Origin: a virus
Lineage: Duplodnaviria; Heunggongvirae; Uroviricota; Caudoviricetes
Strand: one strand, 5' to 3'
IMG/VR virus record: IMGVR_UViG_2671180884_000028
Location: 1-10,652 of that record
DNA length: 10,652 nucleotides
The position numbers and the translations under genes are program-made. The notes beneath the pieces were generated by a model that saw nothing but the letters and a program-made list of their open reading frames with translations, ran no database searches and was not told where the DNA came from. Of this stretch, positions 1-10,652 are shown piece by piece (the first letter of the stretch is position 1; each line of letters starts with the position of its first letter).

Positions 1-1242
1 ATGGCGAGAAAAACACCCCCATTAACCACAGTACAGATCAAAGCAGCCAGACCAGCAGAAAAGGAATACACCCTACAGGACGGCGGAGGGCTTTTTCTCC
101 TGATCAAACCGTCTGGATCAAAACTCTGGAGATTTTCCTACTACCGACCATCGGACAAAAAAAGAATATTGCTGAGTTTTGGATCGCTTGATGATGTTTC
201 CCTGGCTGATGCCAGAAAACGCCGTAGCGAGTACAGGGCGTTAATTCGTGCCGGAACTGACCCGCAGGACCACGAGAGGCAAAAAAGAGAGGCAGAGGCC
301 CGAAGACAAGGGAACACGTTCGAAAATGTGGCAACAGCATGGTACCAGGTGAAAATCAGCCAGAATCTGGCCCCCAATACGATTAAAGACATCTGGCGAT
401 CGCTGGAAAAATATGTATTCCCGTTCATCGGCAACACGCCAATAGACACCCTGACCGCTCGCAGGTTTGTTGAGGTGCTTACCCCCATCAAGGAACGTGG
501 CAACCTGGAAACGCTCAAGCGAGTTTTACAGCGTGTAAATGAGGTAATGGATTACGCCGCCAATAGTGGGATGATTGATGCCAATCCGGCTATGAATGTG
601 CGTAAGGCGTTCCCCTCCCCTGTAAAAAAACATATGCCAACAATCCGCCCCGAACAGCTGCCGGAGCTTATGCAGGCTTTATCAGTATCGGCAACAGAAC
701 GGCAGACCAGATTACTGATTGAATGGCAGTTACTGACCGTAACCCGTCCCGTTGAAGCATCGTCGGCACGCTGGGAAGAAATCGACATGGAGGCGCAACG
801 CTGGACCATACCCGCCGGACGCATGAAGATGCGCCGCGACCACGTTATCCCGCTTTGTGACCAGGCTATGGCAGTGCTGGAGGCTATGAAACCAATCAGC
901 CACCACCGCGATTATGTTTTCCCGAGTCTGAAAGACCCACGGCAGCCGATGAACAGCCAGACAGCAAACGCAGCATTACGACGCATGGGGTTCGCTGGCG
1001 TGCTGGTGTCTCATGGATTACGCGCCATATTCAGCACAGCAGCGAACGAGGAAGGATTCGAGCCGGACGTAATCGAGGCGGCACTTGCCCACGTCGACAC
1101 CAACGAAGTCAGACGGGCATACAACCGGAGCAACTACATAGAAAAACGCGTGGTGCTTATGCGCTGGTGGGGCGAATTTGTCGAGGCTGCGGCGACGGGC
1201 GTAACCCTCGCCAGTGGTAAAAGGGGTATCCGAGCCGTTTAG
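1..1242 (+). CDS. int: Tyrosine recombinase / integrase, P4-type (N-terminal arm-binding domain plus C-terminal catalytic domain)
   Basis: 413-aa ORF from ATG at 1 to TAG at 1240-1242. N-terminus (LTTVQIKAARPAEKEYTLQDGGGLFLLIKPSGSKLWRFSYY) is typical of the DUF4102 arm-binding domain of P4-like integrases. C-terminal region (HVIPL..., HGLRAIFSTAANEEGF..., RAYNRSNYIEKR) fits the tyrosine recombinase catalytic R..HxxR..Y pattern. Confidence 0.9.
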   Translation: MARKTPPLTTVQIKAARPAEKEYTLQDGGGLFLLIKPSGSKLWRFSYYRPSDKKRILLSFGSLDDVSLADARKRRSEYRALIRAGTDPQDHERQKREAEARRQGNTFENVATAWYQVKISQNLAPNTIKDIWRSLEKYVFPFIGNTPIDTLTARRFVEVLTPIKERGNLETLKRVLQRVNEVMDYAANSGMIDANPAMNVRKAFPSPVKKHMPTIRPEQLPELMQALSVSATERQTRLLIEWQLLTVTRPVEASSARWEEIDMEAQRWTIPAGRMKMRRDHVIPLCDQAMAVLEAMKPISHHRDYVFPSLKDPRQPMNSQTANAALRRMGFAGVLVSHGLRAIFSTAANEEGFEPDVIEAALAHVDTNEVRRAYNRSNYIEKRVVLMRWWGEFVEAAATGVTLASGKRGIRAV

Positions 1243-1340
1243 CTGTACAGAAAACCAGTAAAAACTACGAAAACCATTTAAAACCGTCGTATAATTGCAT
1301 CACATTTAACGACGAGGCCTTGAAAAATGAAACCGTTAAG

Positions 1341-1571
1341 ATGCAAACAAATTTCAGATGCAATTGCGACGGGCTGCAACTGGCCCTGATGGTTCAGCAT
1401 GAATTTTGGTCAACCTACGATCCGGAGGACAGAACGACGGCCCCATCAAAAAAACAGGTAGTAGATTTCCTGGTATCCCGTGGAGCTTCCAGAAATCTGG
1501 CTGTAAGTATTGATAAGGTTGTACGTCCGGCATCCATGAAGACCGGAGGCAGGCCAAAAAAATGGCGGTAA
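1341..1571 (+). CDS. Hypothetical small protein (76 aa from first ATG; ORF is open from TTG at 1320)
   Basis: Open frame ending TAA 1569-1571, preceded by a TATAAT hexamer at 1290-1295 and followed directly by a strong intrinsic terminator. No convincing Shine-Dalgarno; AGA/AGG codons present. An alternative 20-aa ORF from ATG 1327 has a better RBS (GAGG at 1313-1316). Could instead be a non-coding RNA. Confidence 0.3.
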   Translation: MQTNFRCNCDGLQLALMVQHEFWSTYDPEDRTTAPSKKQVVDFLVSRGASRNLAVSIDKVVRPASMKTGGRPKKWR

Positions 1572-1581
1572 CAATCCTGAA

Positions 1582-1605
1582 AGCGGCAGAAATGCCGCTT
1601 TTTTT
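1582..1605 (+). terminator. Rho-independent terminator
   Basis: Hairpin AGCGGCA-gaaa-TGCCGCT (7-bp stem, GAAA tetraloop) followed by a T-run of 7. Confidence 0.7.
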
Positions 1606-1632
1606 ATAAATCCCTTTCAAATCATCAATATA

Positions 1633-1720
1633 AAAAACGGTGTATACCGTTTAAAAACGGTGAGTACTGTTTTTCCCTGCATCCGATGATTTACCGTATT
1701 TCTCACCGGAATACACCGGA
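1633..1720 (+). promoter_or_regulatory. alpA upstream control region with repeated motifs
   Basis: Direct repeats AAAAACGGTG at 1633-1642 and 1653-1662 (20 bp apart), the first inside the inverted repeat AACGGT-gtat-ACCGTT (1636-1651). Direct repeats CACCGGA at 1704-1710 and 1714-1720 (10 bp apart), just upstream of the alpA RBS. Confidence 0.3.
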
Positions 1721-1738
1721 TTAATGAGGTAAATCACG

Positions 1739-1945
1739 ATGGAAGCAATCAAAAAAGTCATCTTTCGCCAGGAAGTAAAAAAACTTATCCATATTAAGGC
1801 AGACAGCACGCTGCAAAGCATGATCAACGCCGGAGAATTCCCGCAGGGTTTTCGTGTCGGTTTGCGCCGTCGCGGATGGTATGAGGAAGACGTAATCGCA
1901 TGGATGAAAGAACGCGAACAAGAAGCGCGCGGAACGACCGCTTAA
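1739..1945 (+). CDS. alpA: AlpA-family transcriptional regulator (prophage CP4-57 regulatory protein-like, HTH)
   Basis: 68 aa; ATG 1739, TAA 1943-1945; RBS TGAGG at 1725-1729. Sequence (FRQEVKKLIHIKADSTLQSMINAGEFPQGFRVGLRRRGWYEEDVIAWM) fits the AlpA/MerR-like HTH pattern (Φ..EV..L...STL...I..G.FP....VG.R..GW.E.DV..WM). Confidence 0.8.
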   Translation: MEAIKKVIFRQEVKKLIHIKADSTLQSMINAGEFPQGFRVGLRRRGWYEEDVIAWMKEREQEARGTTA

Positions 1946-2066
1946 CATATATAGGGCAAATGATGAACATAAAAAAAGCGGCCCCGAAATGGAGCCACCT
2001 TTCTGAACAATTAACCCGCTGCGCCGTATGTGTCAACAATCATAAGCCTGGGCATGATAACCGCGA

Positions 2067-2270
2067 TCAGGCTGGTGGGCAATTATCTTGCTTGTTGGGG
2101 CCGTATTGTGCTGCCATTTTCATCCGTTCAGAACGTGAATATTTTTTTAGAAACTCATCAAGGACAAAAGCGCATGGTGCGAATCTTTCTGATTCATGCT
2201 CGAGCGCCATATTTTCGTGCTCTCTGTTCGTTTTTTGCGATGGTGTATTGGTTGATTCTTTGTTGGTCAT
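2067..2270 (-). CDS. Hypothetical protein (67 aa), possible second gene downstream of the RHH repressor
   Basis: ATG at 2270 (minus strand), 57 bp downstream of the RHH gene stop on the same strand. Hydrophilic, no recognisable domain, weak RBS. Coding status uncertain. Confidence 0.2.
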   Translation of the reverse strand: MTNKESTNTPSQKTNREHENMALEHESERFAPCAFVLDEFLKKYSRSERMKMAAQYGPNKQDNCPPA

Positions 2271-2327
2271 TGTGTGTACCTGTAAAGCAATGCGCCGGAG
2301 TTCCTCACGCCACGGCGCTGATGGTTT

Positions 2328-2519
2328 TTATCCTTTGGGTTCTATGCCGCGCCGCTTTAGTTCAGTGCGCCCCAACTCTTTAAGCCAGTTGGCCAGGCTT
2401 ATGCCGTCGCTCTGTGCTTCTTTATCGAATTGCTCTTTTAGCTCTGGAGAAATTCGCATTCTGAATTGTGGGGATTGCCCGTCCCCTTTAGGGCTTTTAT
2501 CGCGTTTGATTGTTGACAA
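2328..2519 (-). CDS. Arc-like ribbon-helix-helix (RHH) DNA-binding protein, candidate island repressor
   Basis: The C-terminal 50 aa (SPQFRMRISPELKEQFDKEAQSDGISLANWLKELGRTEL) match the P22 Arc N-terminal beta-strand/helix pattern (MPQFNLRWPREVLDLVRKVAEENGRS...). Start is ambiguous: the ORF is open from TTG 2600; TTG 2519 is preceded by AGGTGA; ATG 2459 would remove the beta-strand. Stop TAA is the reverse complement of 2328-2330. Confidence 0.6.
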   Translation of the reverse strand: MSTIKRDKSPKGDGQSPQFRMRISPELKEQFDKEAQSDGISLANWLKELGRTELKRRGIEPKG

Positions 2520-2561
2520 GTGGTCACCTATTGAATTAGCCTTTCTATTGTTAGGTGACCA
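2513..2561. promoter_or_regulatory. Candidate operator/promoter: perfect 10-bp inverted repeat beside a consensus -35 hexamer
   Basis: TTGACA at 2513-2518; TGGTCACCTA at 2521-2530 and its exact reverse complement TAGGTGACCA at 2552-2561 (21-bp spacer). Lies between the RHH gene and the rightward early operon. No good -10 at canonical spacing, so the promoter call is tentative. Confidence 0.4.
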
Positions 2562-2653
2562 CCTTAACACAAGAGCACTTAAAAAAGCAAAGCCCCGCAA
2601 GTGTCATTACCACTCGCAGGGCTTCTAACCAACAACGTAAACTAGGAGCCGTT

Positions 2654-2848
2654 ATGGTTGCTGTAAATCATATACCACACCTTGTACACACACAAACTGC
2701 CTTTGTGTGGCGTTTTCTGGCACTGAGTGCCGGAGAATCTCAAATCATCCACGTAACCGCCTGGACGGAACGCGAAGCGCGTAACCGTTGCCCGTCCGGT
2801 TGTGTTGCTGTATTTGCCGCCCGTATTCGTCAGGAGGTAGGCTTATGA
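2654..2848 (+). CDS. Icd/Ash-like small protein (host cell-division-inhibitor-like family of P4-type elements)
   Basis: 64 aa from ATG 2654 with RBS AGGAG at 2644-2648. Motifs FVWRFLAL...TEREARNR...FAARI resemble the Icd-like family as recalled. The ORF track's longer version starts at GTG 2555 and would overlap the RHH gene. Confidence 0.5.
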   Translation: MVAVNHIPHLVHTQTAFVWRFLALSAGESQIIHVTAWTEREARNRCPSGCVAVFAARIRQEVGL

Positions 2849-3078
2849 GCCAGGAAATCACACTACAACAGGCAGCAGAACGCGCCCACCAAATCGAAGT
2901 TATTTGCGCACTGGCAGAGGATTACCCTGGCATGATGACCGACAGCGAATCAGGGGCAATCATCGGCTTACTTAAACGCCTTAGCGGTGAGGTCTGCGTA
3001 TTCCTGAGCGATGAACAGGAAAGAAGAACGCTTATTTCTAACGAAAAAAAATGCGGAGGGGTACACCATGTGCAATAA
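2845..3078 (+). CDS. Hypothetical protein (77 aa)
   Basis: ATG 2845 overlaps the upstream stop (ATGA at 2845-2848); RBS AGGAGG at 2832-2837. Confidence 0.55.
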   Translation: MSQEITLQQAAERAHQIEVICALAEDYPGMMTDSESGAIIGLLKRLSGEVCVFLSDEQERRTLISNEKKCGGVHHVQ

Positions 3079-3289
3079 CATCCGTCCGGACGCAGCAGCC
3101 GCCGCGCTCACTACGCTGATGCACGCGCTTATCGATATTGAATGCACTGCAGAGCTTGCGCAGGGAGAAGAACAGAAAGACCGGACACAGTTCGCCCTGG
3201 AATGTATCCGATACATCGCAACGCGGTCGCTGAATGACGCTAAAAATATTCTTGTTGCTGATTGTGAAAATGGGGGGGGTTATGCGTGA
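3068..3289 (+). CDS. Hypothetical protein (73 aa)
   Basis: ATG 3068 preceded by GGAGGGG (3055-3061). Overlaps the end of the upstream ORF by 11 nt. An in-frame ATG at 3011 lacks an RBS. Confidence 0.5.
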   Translation: MCNNIRPDAAAAALTTLMHALIDIECTAELAQGEEQKDRTQFALECIRYIATRSLNDAKNILVADCENGGGYA

Positions 3290-3515
3290 TGATCGTTTTA
3301 ATTCCCTGAAACAGGAATTTTCCGGCGTTCCTGATGATGCGGCTGATGCGCTTTCGTCAATGCCAGAACTTATTAGAGCGGCTTTTTTCTTACTTTCCAC
3401 GAGAGAATATAAATCAACGGGGCTTGATGTACTGAATATCGCCGCCGATTATGCGGAATATGTGGCAGAGGCGCGTTACAGAAGAAAATTTCCTGAGGAT
3501 GTAAGCCATGCGTGA
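3282..3515 (+). CDS. Hypothetical protein (77 aa)
   Basis: ATG 3282 preceded by a G-rich RBS (GGGGGGGG at 3272-3279). Overlaps the upstream stop at 3287-3289. Alternative ATG at 3234 has no RBS. Confidence 0.5.
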   Translation: MRDDRFNSLKQEFSGVPDDAADALSSMPELIRAAFFLLSTREYKSTGLDVLNIAADYAEYVAEARYRRKFPEDVSHA

Positions 3516-3741
3516 TATTTACCTCGAAACAATAGACCGCGCATTTCTTGCACTTTCTCACAGTGAAAGCATGATGGAAATATTACGCATATGGCTTGAA
3601 ACACTTGGCGACAATGAACGCGACAAACAAAAATCAAGAATTGCCACGGTATTAATAACGCTTCTTGAGCCTGTAATAATGGAACTGCAAGAAATAGACT
3701 TATTGCACGACAGATATAACGAACAGCACACCGGAGAATAA
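3508..3741 (+). CDS. Hypothetical protein (77 aa)
   Basis: ATG 3508 with GAGGA at 3495-3499; 8-nt overlap with the upstream ORF; stop TAA 3739-3741. Confidence 0.55.
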   Translation: MRDIYLETIDRAFLALSHSESMMEILRIWLETLGDNERDKQKSRIATVLITLLEPVIMELQEIDLLHDRYNEQHTGE

Positions 3742-3746
3742 AAATA

Positions 3747-4046
3747 ATGAAACTTAAATATTCTGGCTTAACTGCCAGTGGCAACACTCACCCTAAATTT
3801 ACGCGCGGTGATATTTACCGCGACCAGTACGGCGGCACGGTAATGATTAAGGGCGTGGCGGGACGGTGCGTAACTTACCGCCGTGAAGGTTACGAATATG
3901 ATTGCGTGATGCCTGTTTATCAGTTCCGGCGTGATTTTTCTCTGGTACAGACCGCGCCGCATAACGTGCCCACCAGCAACGCCAGAGCACGGGCAAACAT
4001 CCAGAAGCTGAAAACCATGATTAACGGATTCAGGGGTAAAAAATGA
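3747..4046 (+). CDS. Hypothetical protein (99 aa)
   Basis: ATG 3747 with GGAGAA at 3733-3738. Its stop overlaps the primase start (ATGA at 4043-4046), indicating translational coupling. Confidence 0.55.
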   Translation: MKLKYSGLTASGNTHPKFTRGDIYRDQYGGTVMIKGVAGRCVTYRREGYEYDCVMPVYQFRRDFSLVQTAPHNVPTSNARARANIQKLKTMINGFRGKK

Positions 4047-5797
4047 AACTGGCACCGAACGTAAAACAGCAGTCACGCGGCATAAAACACAAAGAAACAG
4101 AAGTCATTATTTTTGCGGGTAGTGATGCCTGGTCACACGCGAAACAATGGCAGGAACATGACGCGCGTATGGCCGGAGATAATGAGCCTCCTGTGTGGCT
4201 TGGGGAGCAGCAGTTATCAGAACTGGATAAGCTGCAAATTGTGCCGGAAGGCAGAAAATCCGTGCGCATATTCAGGGCCGGACATCTTGCACCAGTAATG
4301 ATCAAGGCGATTGGTCAAAAGCTGGCGGCGGCTGGTGTACAGGATGCAAATTTTTATCCTGAGGGTATGCACGGCAAGGAGGTGCAGAACTGGCGCGAAT
4401 ACCTGGCCCGTGAACGCCAGAATCTTTCTGATGGTCTGGTCATTGAGCTTCCGGTAAAGCAAAAGGCGCAACTTTCGCAGATGGCGGACAGTGAGCGCGC
4501 GCAGTTGCTTGTCGATCGCTTTGATGGCGTTTGCGTACATCCTGAAAGTGAAATCGTTCACGTATGGCGTGGCGGGGTATGGTGTCCGGTCAGCACAATG
4601 GAACTGAGCCGCGAAATGGTGGCGATCTATTCAGAGCACAGGGCCACTTTCAGCAAGCGCGTAATCAATAACGCCGTGGAAGCATTAAAAGTTATTGCCG
4701 AACCAATGGGCGAGCCGTCCGGCGATTTGTTGCCGTTCGCCAATGGTGCGCTTGACCTGAAAACAGGGGAATTTTCCCCGCACACGCCGGAGAACTGGAT
4801 CACCACGCACAACGGCATTGAATACACGCCACCAGCACCAGGGGAGAATATCCGCGACAACGCGCCAAACTTTCATAAATGGCTTGAGCACGCAGCCGGA
4901 AAAGACCCGCGCAAGATGATGCGTATATGTGCCGCGCTGTACATGATTATGGCGAACCGGTACGACTGGCAGATGTTTATTGAGGCCACCGGAGACGGCG
5001 GGAGCGGTAAAAGTACATTCACACACATAGCCAGCCTTCTGGCAGGGAAACAGAACACGGTAAGCGCTGAGATGACATCGCTTGATGATGCTGGTGGACG
5101 TGCGCAGGTTGTCGGGAGTCGTCTTATCGTCCTGGCAGACCAGCCGAAATATACAGGCGAAGGAACGGGCATCAAGAAAATCACGGGCGGCGACCCCGTG
5201 GAAATTAACCCGAAATATGAAAAGCGTTTCACGGCGGTAATCAGGGCGGTGGTGCTGGCGACCAATAACAATCCGATGATATTCACCGAACGGGCCGGAG
5301 GTGTGGCACGTCGTCGCGTGATTTTCCGTTTCGACAATATTGTTAGTGAGGCCGAAAAAGACAGGGAGCTACCGGAAAAAATTGCGGCTGAAATCCCCGT
5401 CATTATCCGCCGCTTGCTGGCGAACTTTACCGACCCTGAAAAGGCACGGGCTTTACTCATTGAGCAGCGTGACGGTGATGAAGCTCTGGCAATAAAGCAA
5501 CAGACGGATCCGGTTATTGAGTTTTGCCAGTTCCTGAATTTTCTGGAGGAAGCGCGCGGCCTGATGATGGGGGGCGGTGGCGATTCAGTGAAGTACACGA
5601 CCAGGAACAGCCTTTACCGCGTCTATCTGGCGTTTATGGCATACGCAGGCAGGAGCAAACCGCTAAACGTGGCTGAGTTCAGCAAGGCCATGAAGCCAGC
5701 GGCGAAAGTTTACGGGCATGAATATATTACGCGAAAAGTTAAGGGAGTAACGCAGACCAACGCAATTACAACAGACGATTGCGACGCGTTTTTATAA
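4043..5797 (+). CDS. Replication initiator: primase / SF3 helicase (P4 alpha-like / D5-family Pri-Rep protein)
   Basis: 584 aa. Walker A motif ATGDGGSGKST and Walker B-like RLIVLADQP in the C-terminal half. Size and layout match satellite primase-helicases. An iteron-rich origin lies immediately downstream. Confidence 0.85.
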   Translation: MKLAPNVKQQSRGIKHKETEVIIFAGSDAWSHAKQWQEHDARMAGDNEPPVWLGEQQLSELDKLQIVPEGRKSVRIFRAGHLAPVMIKAIGQKLAAAGVQDANFYPEGMHGKEVQNWREYLARERQNLSDGLVIELPVKQKAQLSQMADSERAQLLVDRFDGVCVHPESEIVHVWRGGVWCPVSTMELSREMVAIYSEHRATFSKRVINNAVEALKVIAEPMGEPSGDLLPFANGALDLKTGEFSPHTPENWITTHNGIEYTPPAPGENIRDNAPNFHKWLEHAAGKDPRKMMRICAALYMIMANRYDWQMFIEATGDGGSGKSTFTHIASLLAGKQNTVSAEMTSLDDAGGRAQVVGSRLIVLADQPKYTGEGTGIKKITGGDPVEINPKYEKRFTAVIRAVVLATNNNPMIFTERAGGVARRRVIFRFDNIVSEAEKDRELPEKIAAEIPVIIRRLLANFTDPEKARALLIEQRDGDEALAIKQQTDPVIEFCQFLNFLEEARGLMMGGGGDSVKYTTRNSLYRVYLAFMAYAGRSKPLNVAEFSKAMKPAAKVYGHEYITRKVKGVTQTNAITTDDCDAFL

Positions 5798-5810
5798 TTT
5801 TTTGTAAAAG

Positions 5811-6040
5811 CCCTCTACCCCATCTACCTGAATGAAATAAATACATATTATTCAACATGATAAGTGGGTAGAGGGCCAGGTAGAAGGCTAATAAAAGCTC
5901 TCTACCTCTTCTACCTGATTTTATCAGTTTCAGGTAGCAGGGTAGACGGTAGGTAGAGGAGCCCAAAAAGCTATCTACCCGCTGAAAGCCGCGCCATTAC
6001 TGACATGATGAGCATTCGGGTAGATGGGTAGAGGGGGGGA
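5811..6040. repeat. Iteron array / candidate origin of replication
   Basis: About 12 copies of a core TCTACC / GGTAGA motif arranged in clustered pairs in both orientations. Examples: CCCTCTACCCCATCTACCTGA (5811-5831), GGGTAGAGGGCCAGGTAGAAGG (5865-5886), CTCTCTACCTCTTCTACCTGA (5899-5919), AGGTAGCAGGGTAGACGGTAGGTAGAGGA (5932-5960), GGGTAGATGGGTAGAGGGG (6018-6036). An AT-rich stretch sits at 5831-5862. Confidence 0.6.
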
Positions 6041-6080
6041 GGCACAACTAAAAACTTTTTAAACGAGGGGGTGAAAATAA

Positions 6081-6395
6081 ATGCGCATACATCAAAATCA
6101 CTTAACAAACATGCCAGCCGAAAACATGAATCAGGGGCGACAAATGACCAAAATTCGCAGAGACAGAACAGAGCCAAAATATAAAGCGTTAGACATGACT
6201 GAGCATACCTTAAAGGTGGCAATCAGAACGATAGACCGCCACGCGGGGGAAGGATACGCGAAAGCACATCCCGACATGATAAGCGCATTCATGACCACGA
6301 CGGCGGCAAATTTTGCCACGCTGACAGAGCGGGAGATTGCGGAAGCTGAACAGGTGACAACCATCAACGTTAAAAACGTAGAGGTGGAATCATGA
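6081..6395 (+). CDS. Hypothetical protein (104 aa)
   Basis: ATG 6081 with RBS GAGGGGG (6065-6071). Stop overlaps the ssb start (ATGA at 6392-6395). Confidence 0.55.
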   Translation: MRIHQNHLTNMPAENMNQGRQMTKIRRDRTEPKYKALDMTEHTLKVAIRTIDRHAGEGYAKAHPDMISAFMTTTAANFATLTEREIAEAEQVTTINVKNVEVES

Positions 6396-6809
6396 CAGCA
6401 CAGATAGCGGCTTACGGGCGGCTGGTGGCTGGTGGCTGACCCACAGTTAAAGACCACCAGCAAGGGCACACAAATGACGATGGCGAGTATGGCGGTTCCC
6501 CTGACATGCAGCCAGGCTGATGACGGAACGGCGACGATGTGGTTATCCGTCCTGGCGTTTGGCAGACAGGCCGACGCACTGGCAAAACACCGCAAAGGCG
6601 AGCTGGTGAGCGTGGCGGGTAACATGCAGGTAAGCCAGTGGACAGGCCAGAACGGCGAAACGCGGCAGGGCTGGCAGGTTATCGCAGACAGTGTAATCAG
6701 TGCCCGTGCTGCCCGTCCTGGCGGGAGCAGACGTACAACCACAGGCACACAGGGTAATCAGCCACCAGCGGGAGGCGATGACCCTTACGGTGACGGTATT
6801 CCGTTCTGA
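6392..6809 (+). pseudogene. ssb: Single-stranded DNA-binding protein (SSB-like), disrupted by a frameshift
   Basis: ATG 6392 opens MTAQIAAYGRLVAGG and then hits TGA at 6437-6439. The rest of the protein continues in the +1 frame (ADPQLKTTSKGTQMTMASMAVPL...GWQVIADSVISA...DDPYGDGIPF) with the SSB acidic DIPF tail. A tandem 7-bp duplication GCTGGTG/GCTGGTG at 6421-6434 accounts for the shift; removing one copy restores ...GRLVADPQLK... in frame. Confidence 0.65.
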
Positions 6810-6819
6810 GGGGGTGACG

Positions 6820-7092
6820 ATGGTACATGACCGCATAGCGGAGGAACTCGAGGCAAAAGGCTTTTACCGGAGGGCGGCGGCGCGATGGGGTGAAGTTATG
6901 CAGCTGGTGGAGACAGACAAGGAACGGCATCAGGTTACGATGCGACGGCTGGAATGTTCCAGGAAGGCACAGAAGCCACCGGAGCCGCCGGATAACTTCG
7001 GAGACCTGAGAAAGGCAGTCGATCGCACTTATGCTGAAATGGGTATAGATGGTGTAAGCGATGAAATATGGCGTAATTACCCAGACAGCTAA
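6820..7092 (+). CDS. PerC-family transcriptional regulator-like protein (90 aa)
   Basis: ATG 6820 with RBS GAGGGGG (6808-6814). N-terminus MVHDRIAEELEAKGFYRRAAARWGEVMQL matches the conserved PerC/Pch N-terminal pattern as recalled. Confidence 0.55.
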   Translation: MVHDRIAEELEAKGFYRRAAARWGEVMQLVETDKERHQVTMRRLECSRKAQKPPEPPDNFGDLRKAVDRTYAEMGIDGVSDEIWRNYPDS

Positions 7093-7097
7093 TCAAC

Positions 7098-7120
7098 AGC
7101 CGGAGAAATCCGGCTTTTTT
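7098..7120 (+). terminator. Rho-independent terminator
   Basis: Hairpin AGCCGGA-gaaa-TCCGGCT followed by TTTTTT, directly after the PerC-like gene. An almost identical copy occurs at 9372-9395. Confidence 0.6.
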
Positions 7121-7131
7121 GTACCCAAAAA

Positions 7132-7169
7132 AAGCCCGATAAGTACAGGAGGCATCTTATCGGGCTTTT
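7132..7169. terminator. Second hairpin, possible bidirectional terminator
   Basis: AAGCCCGATAAG-(12-nt loop)-CTTATCGGGCTT with TTTT on the plus side and an A7 run (T7 on minus) on the other side. Confidence 0.4.
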
Positions 7170-7246
7170 GCATATGAGGTTTTTTTGGTGCACTGACACA
7201 CATGATCGGGATAATCATTTCATAATTTGCAACACAACTCAACATC

Positions 7247-7297
7247 ATTGCACAAAATGCAATCCTGATTATAATCAGAGCTGGATGTTCATCCAGT
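7247..7297 (+). promoter_or_regulatory. Promoter of the head module with three palindromic elements (candidate operator or activator sites)
   Basis: -35 TTGCAC (7248-7253), 16-bp spacer, consensus -10 TATAAT (7270-7275). The -10 lies inside the perfect 14-bp palindrome CTGATTATAATCAG (7265-7278). Flanked by ATTGCA-caaaa-TGCAAT (7247-7263) and CTGGATG-tt-CATCCAG (7281-7296). Confidence 0.5.
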
Positions 7298-7331
7298 TAT
7301 GATTTTTTAAGTCAAAGAGGAATTTCTTACT

Positions 7332-7538
7332 ATGGCTGAAGAGAAAAAAGGCGGTGTTTCGGTGTACATAAGCCCCGACATCGTGAAGGCGCTCAAGGAA
7401 CGCCACCAGCAGAACGTAAAAGCAGGCATTGCGGCAGGACTTGATCCGCTGGCGATGGTTGAGCCGTCAACAGGCTGGCAGGTGCGCGCCTACTTACGTG
7501 CGGCGCTGGGTATGAATCAGGTTCACGGGGGTGAATAA
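7332..7538 (+). CDS. Hypothetical head-module protein (68 aa), translationally coupled to the major capsid gene
   Basis: ATG 7332 with RBS AAGAGGAA (7315-7322). Stop overlaps the capsid gene start (TAATG at 7536-7540). Position suggests a scaffold or assembly factor, but there is no sequence evidence for this. Confidence 0.5.
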   Translation: MAEEKKGGVSVYISPDIVKALKERHQQNVKAGIAAGLDPLAMVEPSTGWQVRAYLRAALGMNQVHGGE

Positions 7539-8593
7539 TGGCAGGCAAAGCAATGGCACTTAACACTAACCAGCTTTTTACATACCTGAATCGCGGGGAT
7601 ATTGCGGAATTTAAATTCAGTCCGCTGTTTACCACGCTGTTTTTCCCGAACGTGGCGACATTCAGCACCCAAAACATCATGCTGGATACCCTGGACATTG
7701 AAGAAGTCACCATGTCGGCGTTTTGTTCGCCTATGGTTGGCAGTCAGGTACAGCGCGATAAAGGGTATGAAACCAGCACAATCAAACCTGGCTACATGAA
7801 GCCAAAGCACGAAATCGATCCAACAAAAACCATCATGCGCATGGCTGGAGAAGATCCGGCACAGCTTAACGACCCTACCTACCGCCGTATGCGCCTGATT
7901 ACTGGCAACATGCGCCGCCAGATAAACGCCATTAAAGCGCGCGTGGAATGGCTGGCGGTGAATGCGATAACGACCGGAAAAAACATCATTGAGGGCGAAG
8001 GCATAGAACGCTATGAAATCGACTGGAAAATACCGGAAAACTGCATCATAGAGCAGGCCAAGGGTAAAAAATGGTCCGAGCATGATAAAGATATTTACGA
8101 TCCAATCTATGACATCGAACTATACGCAGATCAGGCAGGTTGCCCCGCCAACGTCATGATTATGGGCGCTGAGGTATGGCGCACGTTACGCAGCTTTAAA
8201 AAATTCCGCGAACTGTACGATCTTTCCCGTGGTTCAGAATCCGCCGCAGAACTGGCCTGTAAAAACCTGGGTGAAGTAGTGAGCTTTAAAGGCTATCTGG
8301 GCGATATTGCCCTTATCGTCTATTCCGGCAAATACACTGACAGCGACGGTACCGAAAAATATTTCCTTGAGCCTGATTTGCTGGTCCTGGGTAACACCAA
8401 CAATAAAGGGCTGGTGGCCTATGGTGCGATTATGGATCAGGAAGCGGTAAGAACGGGCGCAACGCAAAACATGTTCTACCCGAAAAACTGGATTGAAGAC
8501 GGCGATCCGGCGATTGAGTACGTTCAGACGCACAGCGCACCGCAGCCGGTACCGGCAGATATTCGCAAATTTGTTACCGTCAAAATTGGTTAA
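7538..8593 (+). CDS. Major capsid protein, lambda gpE family (HK97 fold)
   Basis: 351 aa. Collinear with lambda gpE as recalled: EFKFSPLFTTLFF vs KFKFDPLFLRLFF; PGYMKPKHEIDP vs PGYVKPKHEVNP; GEDPAQLNDPTYRRMRLITGNMR vs DEDPQNLADPAYRRRRIIMQNMR; VSFKGYLGDIALIVYSGKY vs VSYKGMYGDVAIVVYSGQY; FYPKNWIEDGDPA vs RYPKNWVTTGDPA; C-terminus KFVTVKIG vs EFVSVQLA. Confidence 0.9.
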   Translation: MAGKAMALNTNQLFTYLNRGDIAEFKFSPLFTTLFFPNVATFSTQNIMLDTLDIEEVTMSAFCSPMVGSQVQRDKGYETSTIKPGYMKPKHEIDPTKTIMRMAGEDPAQLNDPTYRRMRLITGNMRRQINAIKARVEWLAVNAITTGKNIIEGEGIERYEIDWKIPENCIIEQAKGKKWSEHDKDIYDPIYDIELYADQAGCPANVMIMGAEVWRTLRSFKKFRELYDLSRGSESAAELACKNLGEVVSFKGYLGDIALIVYSGKYTDSDGTEKYFLEPDLLVLGNTNNKGLVAYGAIMDQEAVRTGATQNMFYPKNWIEDGDPAIEYVQTHSAPQPVPADIRKFVTVKIG

Positions 8594-8604
8594 CGGGGGA
8601 TTCT

Positions 8605-8940
8605 ATGGACACTCCATACATTGAGTTATTTGCAGGCAGTCAGCAGGTATCCACGACGCTGGTACATTTTGCCGCTGATGCTGGCGTCATTCAGGAATTT
8701 ACCCCGCTGATGCTGGCGGACAATGGCGAGTTTAAGCCGTGGGATGGTCAGGAATCTGGCAAGGCTGTTTATCTGACCTCGTACCCTGTGGACACGTCAA
8801 AGCAAAAATCAGCACAGTGTTACAAGACGGGGATATTTAATATCGCCGCCGTAAACTGGCCTGAGAGCGTCGACACTGACGCGAAAAAATGCGCCGCCTT
8901 TGCGGGTTCTGGCGTATCCGTTCAGCCGCTGGCGCGATAA
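8605..8940 (+). CDS. Head decoration / stabilisation protein, lambda gpD-like
   Basis: 111 aa; ATG 8605 with RBS GGGGGA. Matches lambda gpD as recalled: TPLMLADNGEFKPWDG vs TPLMLDTSSRKLVAWDG; CYKTGIFNIAAVNWPE vs FYKSGTFRYEDVLWPE; DAKKCAAFAGSGVS vs DETKKRTAFAGTAIS. Confidence 0.8.
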   Translation: MDTPYIELFAGSQQVSTTLVHFAADAGVIQEFTPLMLADNGEFKPWDGQESGKAVYLTSYPVDTSKQKSAQCYKTGIFNIAAVNWPESVDTDAKKCAAFAGSGVSVQPLAR

Positions 8941-8952
8941 GCAGGGGGAACG

Positions 8953-9366
8953 ATGGCAACGAATGAAAGCATCATGACGCTACCGCTGGCGAGTAAATTT
9001 AAAGCCGAAGCGCGGGCAATGGCTGACAGAGGTTTATCAACCTACGAGGCCGTATATCAACTCAACAAACTGGAAGAGCAGGACAAGCCGCGCGCTGATG
9101 CGATTATGGCGCTTCATGAACATAACGACTATCAGCCGCTGTTACGTGCAATGGCAAACGTGCCATGTATTAGCGTCGATAATGCTCGTGAAATCCTGAA
9201 CATGACCATAGAGCAGGAGCGCCCAAAGGTTGCGCCGGAGCTTACCGCAGCCTTTGAAAACTTTATGGACATGCACAGCCCGAAAGCCGTATCACCCGGC
9301 ATGGCATACGATGGCAGAAACCAGGGCGATGACGGCGACATCGATCGCATACTGAAAACCATCTGA
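8953..9366 (+). CDS. Hypothetical protein (137 aa) at the end of the head module
   Basis: ATG 8953 with RBS AGGGGGAA (8943-8950). Followed by a terminator hairpin. No recognisable homology. Confidence 0.55.
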   Translation: MATNESIMTLPLASKFKAEARAMADRGLSTYEAVYQLNKLEEQDKPRADAIMALHEHNDYQPLLRAMANVPCISVDNAREILNMTIEQERPKVAPELTAAFENFMDMHSPKAVSPGMAYDGRNQGDDGDIDRILKTI

Positions 9367-9371
9367 GACAA

Positions 9372-9395
9372 GGCCGGAGAAATCCGGCTTTTTTT
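9372..9395 (+). terminator. Rho-independent terminator (second copy of the hairpin at 7098-7120)
   Basis: GGCCGGA-gaaa-TCCGGC followed by T7. Sits immediately upstream of the cosQ-like sequence. Confidence 0.6.
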
Positions 9396-9572
9396 ACGGG
9401 TCCTTTCCGGCATATGGACCCGTTACGGGGCGGCGACCTCGCGCGTTTTCGCTATTTATGAGCCTTTTCAGGGGGGTGGTGGTGGTTTTGTTGTTTGCTC
9501 TATCTTTATGAATGAAAAGGGAAAGATGCAAACAATACACCAACCTGAAGCAGTAATTAAGTTGGTGTATTA
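9396..9572 (+). other. cos site A (cosQ-like, cosN, divergent cosB), forward orientation, upstream of terS
   Basis: ACGGGTCCTTTCCGG...CCGTTACG followed by the exact lambda cohesive-end 12-mer GGGCGGCGACCT (9428-9439), then CGCGCGTTTTCGCTATTTATGAG, closely matching the lambda genome left end as recalled. The distal part lacks lambda R-site motifs and instead has inverted repeats AATACACCAAC / GTTGGTGTATT (9530-9540 / 9561-9571) and TGTTTGC / GCAAACA (9494-9500 / 9517-9523). Confidence 0.75.
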
Positions 9573-10115
9573 ATGAAATCGCACCTGATGAACAAAAAAA
9601 ACATGGCGAAAAGCTGCCGTGTAAGTGCGACAGCGTTCGACAAGTGGGGAGTGACTCCCGTTGAACGTAAAGGCCGTGAGGCGTTTTATGATGTTGCCAG
9701 CGTGATAGACAATAGGGTTAACAATGCAATTAGCCAGCTTACAAACGACAAAGGCGATATTGATGATGATGAACTCTTACGAGTCAGGATCAGATTACTG
9801 ACAGCACAGGCGGAGGCGCAGGAACTTAAAAACGAGCGCGATCGCGGTGACGTGATTGATACTGAGTTTTGCCTGTACGCGCTTTCAAAGCTGGCGAGTC
9901 AGATTTCATCAATCATGGACAGCCTCCCGCTTACTATGCAAAGGAGCTTCCCACAGATTACCCCCGCCATGCTGGACAGGCTTAAAAGGGAAGTGGTTAA
10001 AGCCTGTAATGCCAGTGCCAGAGTTGCCGACAACCTCCCACAGATACTGGCTGATTACTTGAAAGAAACAACCGGAAACGTACCGGAAAAGTTGCTACAG
10101 AAGAAAGGCAAGTAA
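9573..10115 (+). CDS. Terminase small subunit, lambda Nu1-like (TerS)
   Basis: 180 aa. Middle and C-terminal regions are collinear with lambda Nu1 as recalled: LTAQAEAQELKNERDRGDVIDTEFCLYALSKLASQISSIMDSLPLTMQRSFPQ vs LTRAQADAQELKNARDSAEVVETAFCTFVLSRIAGEIASILDGLPLSVQRRFPE. The N-terminal wHTH region is much more divergent. Alternative start ATG 9588 (MNKKNMAK) aligns with Nu1 MEVNKKQLA. No strong RBS at either start. Confidence 0.85.
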   Translation: MKSHLMNKKNMAKSCRVSATAFDKWGVTPVERKGREAFYDVASVIDNRVNNAISQLTNDKGDIDDDELLRVRIRLLTAQAEAQELKNERDRGDVIDTEFCLYALSKLASQISSIMDSLPLTMQRSFPQITPAMLDRLKREVVKACNASARVADNLPQILADYLKETTGNVPEKLLQKKGK

Positions 10116-10340
10116 CAGAAGCGCAATTATTGAACAAAAATGAGAAACGACATGAAAGCGTCATAAATCGCCATTTCAGATGATTACCGTGTCGTTTCTT
10201 TTTATTGTGTATCTATTTAAAAACAAATAGTTATGTTCGAGAAGTACCGACATGATTTTTCCAGAAAAATTTTCATAAACAGATAAAAACCGCGAGGTCG
10301 CCGCCCCGTAACGGGCCATAATTCCAGGAAGGACCCGACG
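10116..10340 (-). other. cos site B (lambda-like cosQ-cosN-cosB) in inverted orientation, downstream of terS
   Basis: On the minus strand: CGGGTCCTTCCTGGAATTATGGCCCGTTACG, then GGGCGGCGACCT (plus 10295-10306), then CGCGGTTTTTATCTGTTTATGAAAATTTTTCTGG, then R-site-like AAGAAACGACACGG and ATGTCGTTTCTCA (perfect 10-bp inverted repeat at plus 10152-10161 / 10190-10199). This is collinear with lambda cosN-I2-R3-R2 as recalled. A 25-bp core is a perfect inverted repeat of cos A (9419-9443 vs 10291-10315). Confidence 0.7.
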
Positions 10341-10370
10341 ACACCAGACTATCAGAACGATGGGGGCACA

Positions 10371-10652
10371 ATGACAGAAGCCGAACTACTGCGATTAATC
10401 CGTCGCGTTGCCGGAATCAGCCAGCAGGCTGACGAACAGGCCACGCAGCCGGACAGCGTGACAGCCGAAAATTATGTGCGTGTTGTTGCGGAGGTGATGC
10501 GCCGTGATGGTATCCAGCTTAATGATGCGGATATGCGCGACATACGGATCCGCGTTCTTGAAATGCTGGCCTACCGTCGCCGCGTGCAGACGTACAGGGA
10601 AAAAGCAAAAATAACGTACCAGTGGAAGAAGCCGGAGCGATTACGGCGGTAA
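10371..10652 (+). CDS. Hypothetical protein (93 aa) just beyond cos B
   Basis: ATG 10371 with G-rich RBS (GGGGG at 10362-10366); stop TAA 10650-10652 at the window end. No recognisable homology. Confidence 0.45.
   Translation: MTEAELLRLIRRVAGISQQADEQATQPDSVTAENYVRVVAEVMRRDGIQLNDADMRDIRIRVLEMLAYRRRVQTYREKAKITYQWKKPERLRR

Follow-up and report, generated by a model that had tools for sequence, protein, structure and literature searches.

A promoter with a predicted LexA operator ahead of the head and packaging genes of an EcCICFT073-type phage-inducible chromosomal island

Introduction

Which regulator governs the head and packaging genes of a phage-inducible chromosomal island (PICI) is the question raised by a short intergenic region in the virus record IMGVR_UViG_2671180884_000028 (Caudoviricetes). 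The stretch analysed here, positions 1 to 10,652 of this record and below called the window, is a PICI of the EcCICFT073 type from Escherichia coli. Upstream of its capsid and packaging genes lies a promoter overlaid by three palindromes, which are numbered 1 to 3 in the direction of transcription. An earlier note, made from the letters of this DNA, had named as candidate regulators a ribbon-helix-helix (RHH) repressor of the island, AlpA, a PerC-like protein and a late activator of the helper phage.

In the literature searched, the way in which Gram-negative PICIs turn on their capsid-homologue and Rpp genes is not described; knowledge is confined to the AlpA switch, through which excision and replication depend on the helper. 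Neither a description of the EcCICFT073-type head/packaging promoter nor LexA control of the packaging genes of Gram-negative PICIs was found there. Here we report that palindrome 3 is, judged by its sequence and conservation, best read as an operator of the host repressor LexA, a regulator absent from the list above, and that palindrome 1 is one of two conserved dyads that are probably bound by a further, dimeric protein.

Results

Palindrome 3, CTGGATG-tt-CATCCAG, forms the 16-bp core CTGGATGTTCATCCAG (7281-7296) of a LexA-like SOS box and is the only CTG-N10-CAG site within 7180-7330. Its half-sites CTGGAT and ATCCAG are identical to those of the E. coli ruvA SOS box CGCTGGATATCTATCCAGCA (PMC3009722, Table 4). 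With a Berg-von Hippel matrix built from the 18 E. coli LexA boxes of the same table, the known boxes being scored leave-one-out, a heterology index (HI) of 7.64/9.12 was obtained for the 20-bp box of the window. The known boxes range from 0.6 to 12.8, with 8.5 for ruvA. At the composition of the window, random sequence is expected to contain 0.0035 sites with HI ≤ 8 and 0.013 sites with HI ≤ 9.2 per 10.6 kb. In 920 kb of related loci, 20-mers with HI < 9.5 occurred within the islands only at this promoter and in the int-alpA region.

For comparison, 59 unique E. coli-type versions of the region were gathered from IMG/VR and E. coli genomes. Four distant lineages were reached through the protein family of ORF68, the product of the first gene of the operon: Salmonella Glostrup, Pluralibacter gergoviae and two lineages termed L100-type and L211, which together with the E. 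coli type make up the five lineages referred to below. Two scans of genome contigs for relatives in other species yielded none; the distant relatives came from protein clusters and IMG/VR. A stretch of 450 bp around the palindrome cluster is present in 600 of 5,426 complete E. coli genomes with 80-99% identity. Within E. coli the nucleotide diversity of the block 7214-7331 is 0.087, compared with 0.15-0.23 at fourfold-degenerate sites of the downstream genes, which points towards a moderate constraint on the promoter block.

The box is retained in the prototype EcCICFT073 (HI 6.98), in Salmonella (8.27), in Pluralibacter (7.56) and in every in-register E. coli-type variant, with HI values of 5.2-9.2 among the variants; it is missing from one variant that carries a 1-nt insertion. 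Save in two off-register (indel) rows, CTGGAT and CAG do not vary, and the variation at positions 7-11, at position 13 and in the flanks falls where LexA tolerates it. Variants in which ATCCAG has become ATACAG break the stem of the palindrome, yet come nearer to the LexA consensus. The box starts 4 bp past the -10 hexamer and, counted from the predicted transcription start, would reach from about -3 to +17, a usual location for repression by LexA. In Pluralibacter it is intact but lies 13 bp further downstream from the -10 hexamer.

LexA-like sequences and their traces were also seen at other places. The 13-bp insertion of Pluralibacter, AACTGAATTTTTA (L096:3940-3990), looks as if the left half of the box had been duplicated in part, and the flanking Pluralibacter chromosome holds a further, strong site (L096:7983-8002, TGCTGTTTTTATAAACAGCG, HI 5.5) directly upstream of a UDG-family gene. 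In the window, a second LexA-like box (AGCTGTACAGAAAACCAGTA, 1241-1260, HI 7.66) begins one base into the integrase stop codon and is followed by AAAACCA repeats, a TATAAT at 1290 and a conserved open reading frame (ORF) of 76 aa (1341-1571) with its own terminator. Islands of the same integrase type keep this box with CTG and CAG intact, for example as AACTGTACAAAAAACCAGTA with an HI of 4.68 in L045. Islands with other integrase types carry a LexA-like site between int and alpA with one half-site CAC or CAT instead of CAG, such as TACTGTTTTTTTATACACTG; these sites were located at L187:3789-3808 (EcCICFT073) and L002:2485-2504. The one in EcCICFT073 may be non-functional, given the published SOS-independence of its alpA gene.

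The three palindromes are present exactly as they had been described; direct reading, a repeat finder and a separate scan agree on them. Taken singly they are unremarkable, with about 0.4-2.6 occurrences of each expected in a window. Out of 1000 Markov-random windows, only 3 contained three perfect inverted repeats that do not overlap and lie within 55 bp (arms ≥ 6, spacer ≤ 5); at the local AT-rich composition, 16 of 1000 did. An Rfam search of the region gave no match near any gathering score.

The promoter itself was confirmed in its hexamers and its spacing: TTGCnn, exactly 16 bp and TA(T/A)AAT are retained in all five lineages. TATAAT matches the consensus at all six positions and is nearly invariant across the 59 E. 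coli-type variants. The description as near-consensus, however, overstates the -35 hexamer, since TTGCAC agrees with TTGACA at three of six positions (TTG); for this reason the promoter is missing from the list of a stricter consensus scan. Very probably, this element drives the head/packaging operon, with a predicted start site at about 7280-7284.

That two terminators insulate the module from the PerC-like gene, as previously stated, was borne out. The RNA hairpin of terminator t1 folds with -12.6 kcal/mol (z -4.3) and that of t2, bidirectional in form, with -20.5 kcal/mol. Their architecture of A-run, stem and T-run recurs in Salmonella, Pluralibacter and the L100-type, with different stem sequences in each lineage, and the operon accordingly needs a promoter of its own.

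Palindrome 1 had been described as a lone dyad. This overlooked a second copy 30 bp upstream, centre to centre, and we refer to the two as site P (palindrome 1, centre at about -27) and site U (centre at about -57). They are the only matches to ATTKCA-N5-TGMAAT in the whole window. As can be seen in Table 1, the arms of site P are kept in all lineages (rTTGCr...TGCAAT), whereas the 5-nt spacer varies freely.

Table 1. Dyads U and P in the five lineages
Lineage	Site U	Site P	Distance
E. coli (window)	ATTTCA-TAATT-TGCAAC	ATTGCA-CAAAA-TGCAAT	30 bp
Pluralibacter	ATTTCA-TTAAA-TGCAAC	GTTGCA-TTAAA-TGCAAT	30 bp
Salmonella	ATTTCA-TATTA-TGAAAT (read from sequence)	GTTGCG-ATAAG-TGCAAT	30 bp
L100-type	ATTTCA-TGATT-TGCAAC	ATTGCA-AAAAA-TGCAAT	30 bp
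L211	ATTGCA-CTTTA-TGCAAT	GTTGCA-TGTTA-TGCAAT	32 bp

Two distant ORF68-like genes (39-45% identity) have the same 17-13-17 layout upstream, with the -35 hexamer in the left arm of the proximal dyad, 16 bp and a -10-like hexamer. With arms conserved, spacer free and geometry fixed, a dimeric DNA-binding protein probably acts at both U and P, which are therefore predicted operators. Since site P covers the -35 hexamer and the spacer, repression is suggested, and from the position of the sites the protein is probably a cooperatively binding repressor. To our knowledge, no CytR-, LysR- or CRP/FNR-like site fits ATTKCA-N5-TGMAAT in spacing or orientation. The distant loci themselves (L227:430-710 and L228:1-207) have small ORFs downstream, and in L227 a tail-spike gene, not capsid genes; iteron-like repeats AGTGAGGAG/AGTGGGGAG lie upstream of their two-dyad promoter layout.

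The most specific candidate for the protein acting at U and P is ORF68, because the sites travel with an ORF68-like gene; it is a weak candidate all the same. Its N-terminus VSVYISPDIVKALKE resembles the strand-helix start of RHH proteins, and hhalign aligns it in register with the strand and helix of CopG/Arc-like proteins, but with a non-significant probability of 0.6-2% against CopG and the Arc-like protein of the island. No Pfam match was obtained for the window protein, and RHH_1 appeared with E = 0.15 in two of 13 relatives. NCBIfam and PDB sequences gave no significant match, and an AlphaFold2 model (pLDDT 74) contains two helices and retrieved nothing with E < 4 in Foldseek. ORF68 is accordingly not a recognisable DNA-binding or RHH protein by any of these searches. 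Its family is narrow, with 14 relatives among 1.84 billion protein representatives in a profile search. The ORF68 stop codon overlaps the start of the capsid gene (TAATG, 7536-7540), which implies translational coupling of the two genes; for the same reason, ORF68 could equally be an assembly factor.

Palindrome 2 had been presented as a perfect 14-bp palindrome around the -10 hexamer. This is true in the window, but the outer C/G pair is polymorphic (A..T in 23, A..G in 15, C..G in 14 and C..T in 4 of 59 unique homologues), and only the 12-bp core TGATTATAATCA (7266-7277), conserved in E. coli and Pluralibacter, is nearly invariant. Salmonella has GGTTTATAATCAGG and has lost the left arm, and L211 is without the right arm. 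In the L100-type, which has ATGATTAAAATCAT, the arms TGATT/AATCA persist although the -10 hexamer is TAAAAT. Much of the symmetry is intrinsic to ATTATAAT, and six of the conserved bases are the -10 hexamer itself. AATCA, the right half of palindrome 2, also forms the base of a long hairpin (7273-7304). As a separate operator palindrome 2 is therefore a weak candidate, and its function would essentially be that of the -10 hexamer. The general view that the dyad symmetry reflects protein control would hold for the part of the cluster that resembles protein-binding sites, but not well for palindrome 2.

This hairpin, found by the repeat finder and listed as terminator-like by the scan, extends palindrome 3 on both sides. 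In EcCICFT073 and about half of the variants it is a perfect 15+15 repeat (AATCATAACTGGATG-AA-CATCCAGTTATGATT) with -17.7 kcal/mol. The 14-15-bp stem of the window reaches -13.4 kcal/mol, has an AU-rich base and abuts UUUU. Among 33 unique sub-sequences, the pair 7278/7299 is G.A in 15, T-A in 13, G-C in two and T.G in one; one of the two G-C variants also has G-C at 7279/7298. The positions of these pair-restoring changes are beyond the 20-bp LexA box or at its margin. A disruptive G.A at 7284/7293 occurs in four of the 33. Salmonella shows a compensated change of G-C to A-T in the stem, Pluralibacter and O55 variants show wobble-compatible changes, and in Pluralibacter a T6 directly abuts the stem. 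The L100-type and L211 have no hairpin and nevertheless keep the T-run. With frequent G.A mismatches, an AU-rich base and a T-run that is kept without a hairpin, the evidence is mixed; an RNA-level role of the hairpin besides LexA binding appears likely from the covariation and fold described. As the 5' arm begins inside the -10 hexamer, only transcripts that start upstream hold the full stem, and a role as third terminator that insulates the promoter from read-in transcription would therefore fit. In that case the operon would be expressed from this promoter only. Alternatively, the hairpin may act at the RNA level as an attenuator or as a stem-loop that stabilises the 5' end.

The positions of all features are compiled in Table 2. 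The order of the head and packaging genes is the same in EcCICFT073, for which cos packaging, in agreement with the cosN core of the window, as well as redirection of lambda packaging by c1503 (rppA) were reported (PMC6739421). The cosN core is placed between the TerS/Rpp-like gene and an ORF of 93 aa. The stretch between ssb and t2 (window 6810-7125, compared with L001-L006 and L098) is a variable slot that holds perC alone, perC with small ORFs, or nothing, and the sequence from t2 through the promoter stays conserved beside it. In a deletion variant (L229:3001-3240; L230:380-619) the PerC N-terminus is fused to the ORF68 C-terminus; the terminators and the entire promoter are gone, and the capsid genes therefore join the upstream operon. 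Inverted and direct repeats that overlap each other, AAACGGTGTATACCGTTTAAAAACGGT (1635-1661), precede alpA by about 80 bp; they are candidates for binding by the autoactivator AlpA and bear no relation to the dyads of the head promoter.

Table 2. Features of the window
Feature	Position	Strand	Remarks
Integrase	1-1242		
AlpA-like gene	1739-1945		
Arc/HicB-like RHH gene	2328-2600	minus	
DUF4222 protein	3747-4046		
D5-type primase	4043-5797		
Single-stranded DNA-binding protein (SSB)	6432-6809		
PerC-like gene	6700-7092		
Intergenic region with palindrome cluster	7093-7331		
Terminator t1	7098-7121	plus	after PerC-like gene; stem-loop 7098-7115 with 7-bp GC-rich stem and 4-nt loop, T6
Terminator t2	7126-7172		A-run, perfect 14-bp arms 7130-7143/7156-7169, T-run
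Site U	7217-7233		ATTTCA-taatt-TGCAAC
Site P (palindrome 1)	7247-7263		ATTGCA-caaaa-TGCAAT; over -35 and spacer
Sigma-70-type promoter	7248-7275	plus	-35 TTGCAC 7248-7253, 16-bp spacer, -10 TATAAT 7270-7275
Palindrome 2	7265-7278		CTGATTATAATCAG; perfect, 14 bp, around -10
Extended inverted repeat, terminator-like	7273-7308	plus	arms 7273-7287/7290-7304, T-run 7303-7308
LexA-like SOS box	7279-7298		AGCTGGATGTTCATCCAGTT; core CTGGATGTTCATCCAG is palindrome 3
Shine-Dalgarno sequence of ORF68	7315-7322	plus	AAGAGGAA
ORF68, first operon gene	7332-7538	plus	68 aa; phrog_3255 (PHROGs)
Lambda-E-like major capsid protein	7538-8593	plus	PHROGs; Pfam Phage_cap_E
D-like head decoration protein	8605-8940	plus	PHROGs; Pfam HDPD
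137-aa protein	8953-9366	plus	PHROGs
TerS/Nu1-like (Rpp-type) protein	9573-10115	plus	PHROGs; Pfam Phage_Nu1
Lambda-type cosN core	10293-10308	minus	GGGCGGCGACCT

Discussion

With moderate confidence we favour a joint reading of these elements, namely a sigma-70 promoter with LexA at palindrome 3, a second regulator at U and P and a terminator-like hairpin, which would together make 7217-7308 the control region of the head/packaging operon from ORF68 to the TerS/Rpp-like gene. The promoter would start transcription at about 7280-7284, and host LexA, bound across the start site, would hold the operon down in undamaged cells. Some basal expression is to be expected, because the score of the box is that of a medium to weak operator like ruvA. 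Repression by LexA would be lifted in the SOS response, by which lambdoid helper prophages are induced as well, and the dyads U and P would serve as operators for the second, dimeric regulator.

Several observations weigh against this reading. Typical LexA boxes have a more AT-rich centre than GATGTTCATC, the centre of the box here, and the score of the box predicts only a moderate affinity. The box is missing from the L100-type and L211, in which the promoter and the dyads are present. EcCICFT073 carries a LexA-like site upstream of alpA, although its alpA is reported not to be SOS-inducible (PMC6092414), and LexA-like sequences in these islands hence need not work. The island also blocks lambda infection through rppA without DNA damage (PMC6739421); the operon is therefore not strictly SOS-dependent, and repression must be leaky or bypassed. 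Further, the palindrome exceeds the 20 bp that LexA needs, with pair-preserving changes and, in Pluralibacter, a T6 directly after it, which argues for selection on an RNA hairpin besides, or in place of, the operator. Finally, conservation within E. coli is only moderately informative, because the diversity there is modest.

It is conceivable, though doubtful, that palindrome 3 is purely an RNA element, i.e. a third terminator, a leader attenuator or a 5' stabilising stem-loop, and that its likeness to a LexA box is a coincidence. The terminator-like call, a stability of the perfect 15+15 form comparable to that of t1 and t2, the pair-preserving changes at 7278/7299 and 7279/7298 and the compensated or wobble-compatible changes in Salmonella, Pluralibacter and O55 would all be accounted for in this way, as would the T6 in Pluralibacter. 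A random palindrome, however, begins with CTG in about one of 64 cases, and a LexA-like score together with both ruvA half-sites would be rare. The ATACAG variants place a G.A mismatch in the middle of the stem, and an AU-rich stem base is poor for termination. The operon's own transcript, from a predicted start at about 7282, would hold a short stem only, followed by the U-run 4-5 nt later. Moreover, the T-run is not tied to the hairpin, since it persists in lineages that lack one. A function in RNA would also be compatible with LexA binding and does not exclude it.

The model of the earlier note, in which the three palindromes are operators for dedicated regulators of the island or the helper, is improbable. 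It can call on a cluster that is unlikely to arise by chance, on the conserved arms of palindrome 1 with their variable spacer and on the TGATT/AATCA arms of palindrome 2, shared by three of the four lineages that were compared first, including the one whose -10 hexamer is TAAAAT. Yet many islands with the same promoter lack perC, and many lack the Arc/HicB-like RHH gene; neither gene regularly accompanies the promoter. Upstream of the RHH gene there is no copy of the palindrome 1 dyad, nor is there one upstream of alpA, which has repeats of its own, and E. coli PICIs are reported to carry differing AlpA alleles (PMC6092414). Elsewhere in the window there is no further copy of palindrome 2 or 3, and palindrome 2 lost an arm in Salmonella and in L211 and is polymorphic in its outer pair. 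A helper late activator found no more support: a distant blastn search of 7120-7335 against 50,697 phage records returned nothing significant, and lambda 43500-48502 (Q-PR'-6S region) contains no such dyad or promoter similarity. Within 7180-7330, the P2/P4-type motif TGT-N12-ACA (Ogr/Delta) is absent from both strands, and a motif scan detected no CII site (TTGC-N6-TTGC), no sigma-54, CRP, FNR or IHF site and no extended -10. A Fur-like GATAATCATT at 7210 is not conserved among the variants. Very unlikely is antitermination of the Q type, by which a constitutive promoter would be followed about 25 nt on by a terminator that is read through with helper Q, as at lambda PR'-tR'. The helpers are lambdoid with Q-controlled late genes (PMC11364771), and a perfect -10 hexamer with a hairpin and U-run in the leader would suit. 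Similarity to the lambda PR'/Q-binding region was not found, however, beyond a 13-nt identity CAAAATGCAATCC (window 7253-7265; L185:1213-1225, lambda about 44712-44724) located downstream of PR', in the 6S RNA region; this identity is at chance level by estimate (about 0.2 expected) and shrinks to 12 nt in other island variants. The Q families of the helpers differ (lambda Q; QuuD in the CFT073 prophage) whereas the island promoter is conserved, and the L100-type and L211 are without the hairpin. We find it just as hard to believe that the region has no special function and is an AT-rich intergenic stretch with chance palindromes around an ordinary, unregulated promoter. The frequency of single palindromes, the symmetry of palindrome 2 that is partly intrinsic to TATA and the limited divergence within E. 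coli would allow this. Random sequence nevertheless seldom yields a cluster of this kind (p about 0.003-0.016), the dyad geometry extends to relatives with no more than 39-45% protein identity, and the LexA score, with LexA-like sites at only two places in the islands, remains to be accounted for.

Operon I of the staphylococcal pathogenicity islands (SaPIs), their packaging operon, is reportedly controlled by host LexA, a finding attributed to Ubeda et al. (2007, Mol Microbiol 65:41), whom PMC6092414 and PMC6739421 cite. Both there and here, a satellite packaging/capsid operon with a small-terminase-type gene stands behind its own promoter, and control by the host SOS repressor, shown in SaPIs and predicted here, is separate from the helper-dependent switch. 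The likeness of the window's operon, in which a promoter with a LexA-like box precedes terS-type and capsid genes, is functional only, and sequence homology is not expected. SaPIs have Stl as the upstream switch where this island has AlpA, the LexA motif of Gram-positive bacteria differs from the enterobacterial one, and the U/P dyads have no known SaPI counterpart. The promoter would thus be an SOS-controlled mobile-element promoter convergent with SaPI operon I, a description of which was not found in the literature searched.

Among E. coli SOS boxes, those of ruvAB and cho (CACTGGATAGATAACCAGCA) share with the box here the form CTG-N10-CAG, an uncommon G at position 4 and a similar HI. Unlike ruvA, the central four bases are GTTC or GAAC instead of ATCT, the flanks differ, and the box lies inside a 15+15 repeat with a T-run. 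The arrangement of lambda PR'-qut-tR', a promoter with a strong -10 hexamer followed by a terminator-like hairpin ahead of head/packaging genes, is similar as well, but the distance to the hairpin is about 190 nt there and about 25 nt here, and neither sequence similarity nor a recognisable Q-binding element is present. The late promoters of P2/P4 (Psid, PLL, PF, PO) are activated by Ogr/Delta through a TGT-N12-ACA dyad at about -55. In common with them, a satellite promoter governs capsid-related genes in step with a helper; in place of their dyad, the promoter here has ATTKCA-N5-TGMAAT at about -57 and -27.

Small RHH repressors such as Arc/Mnt and CopG autoregulate their own operators. Half-sites one helical turn apart over the -35 hexamer and a small first gene with an N-terminal strand-helix pattern recall these systems, whereas the homology of ORF68 is non-significant and ORF68 is coupled to translation of the capsid gene. 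A double lock, with LexA at the start site, ORF68 as RHH-like autoregulator at the dyads and a dual-coded LexA operator/terminator in which the palindrome is extended by 7 bp on each side, is rather unlikely. The cassette of ORF68 and dyads is also found ahead of other gene sets.

Conclusion

A LexA operator is predicted in the prototype EcCICFT073 as well as in about 600 of 5,426 complete E. coli genomes. If it functions as such, DNA damage, including that by SOS-inducing antibiotics, would directly prime the packaging and phage-interference functions of the satellite, and the island would parallel the staphylococcal SaPIs with a convergent regulatory logic. The two conserved dyads point towards a second regulator, which is now open to isolation by means of its sites.

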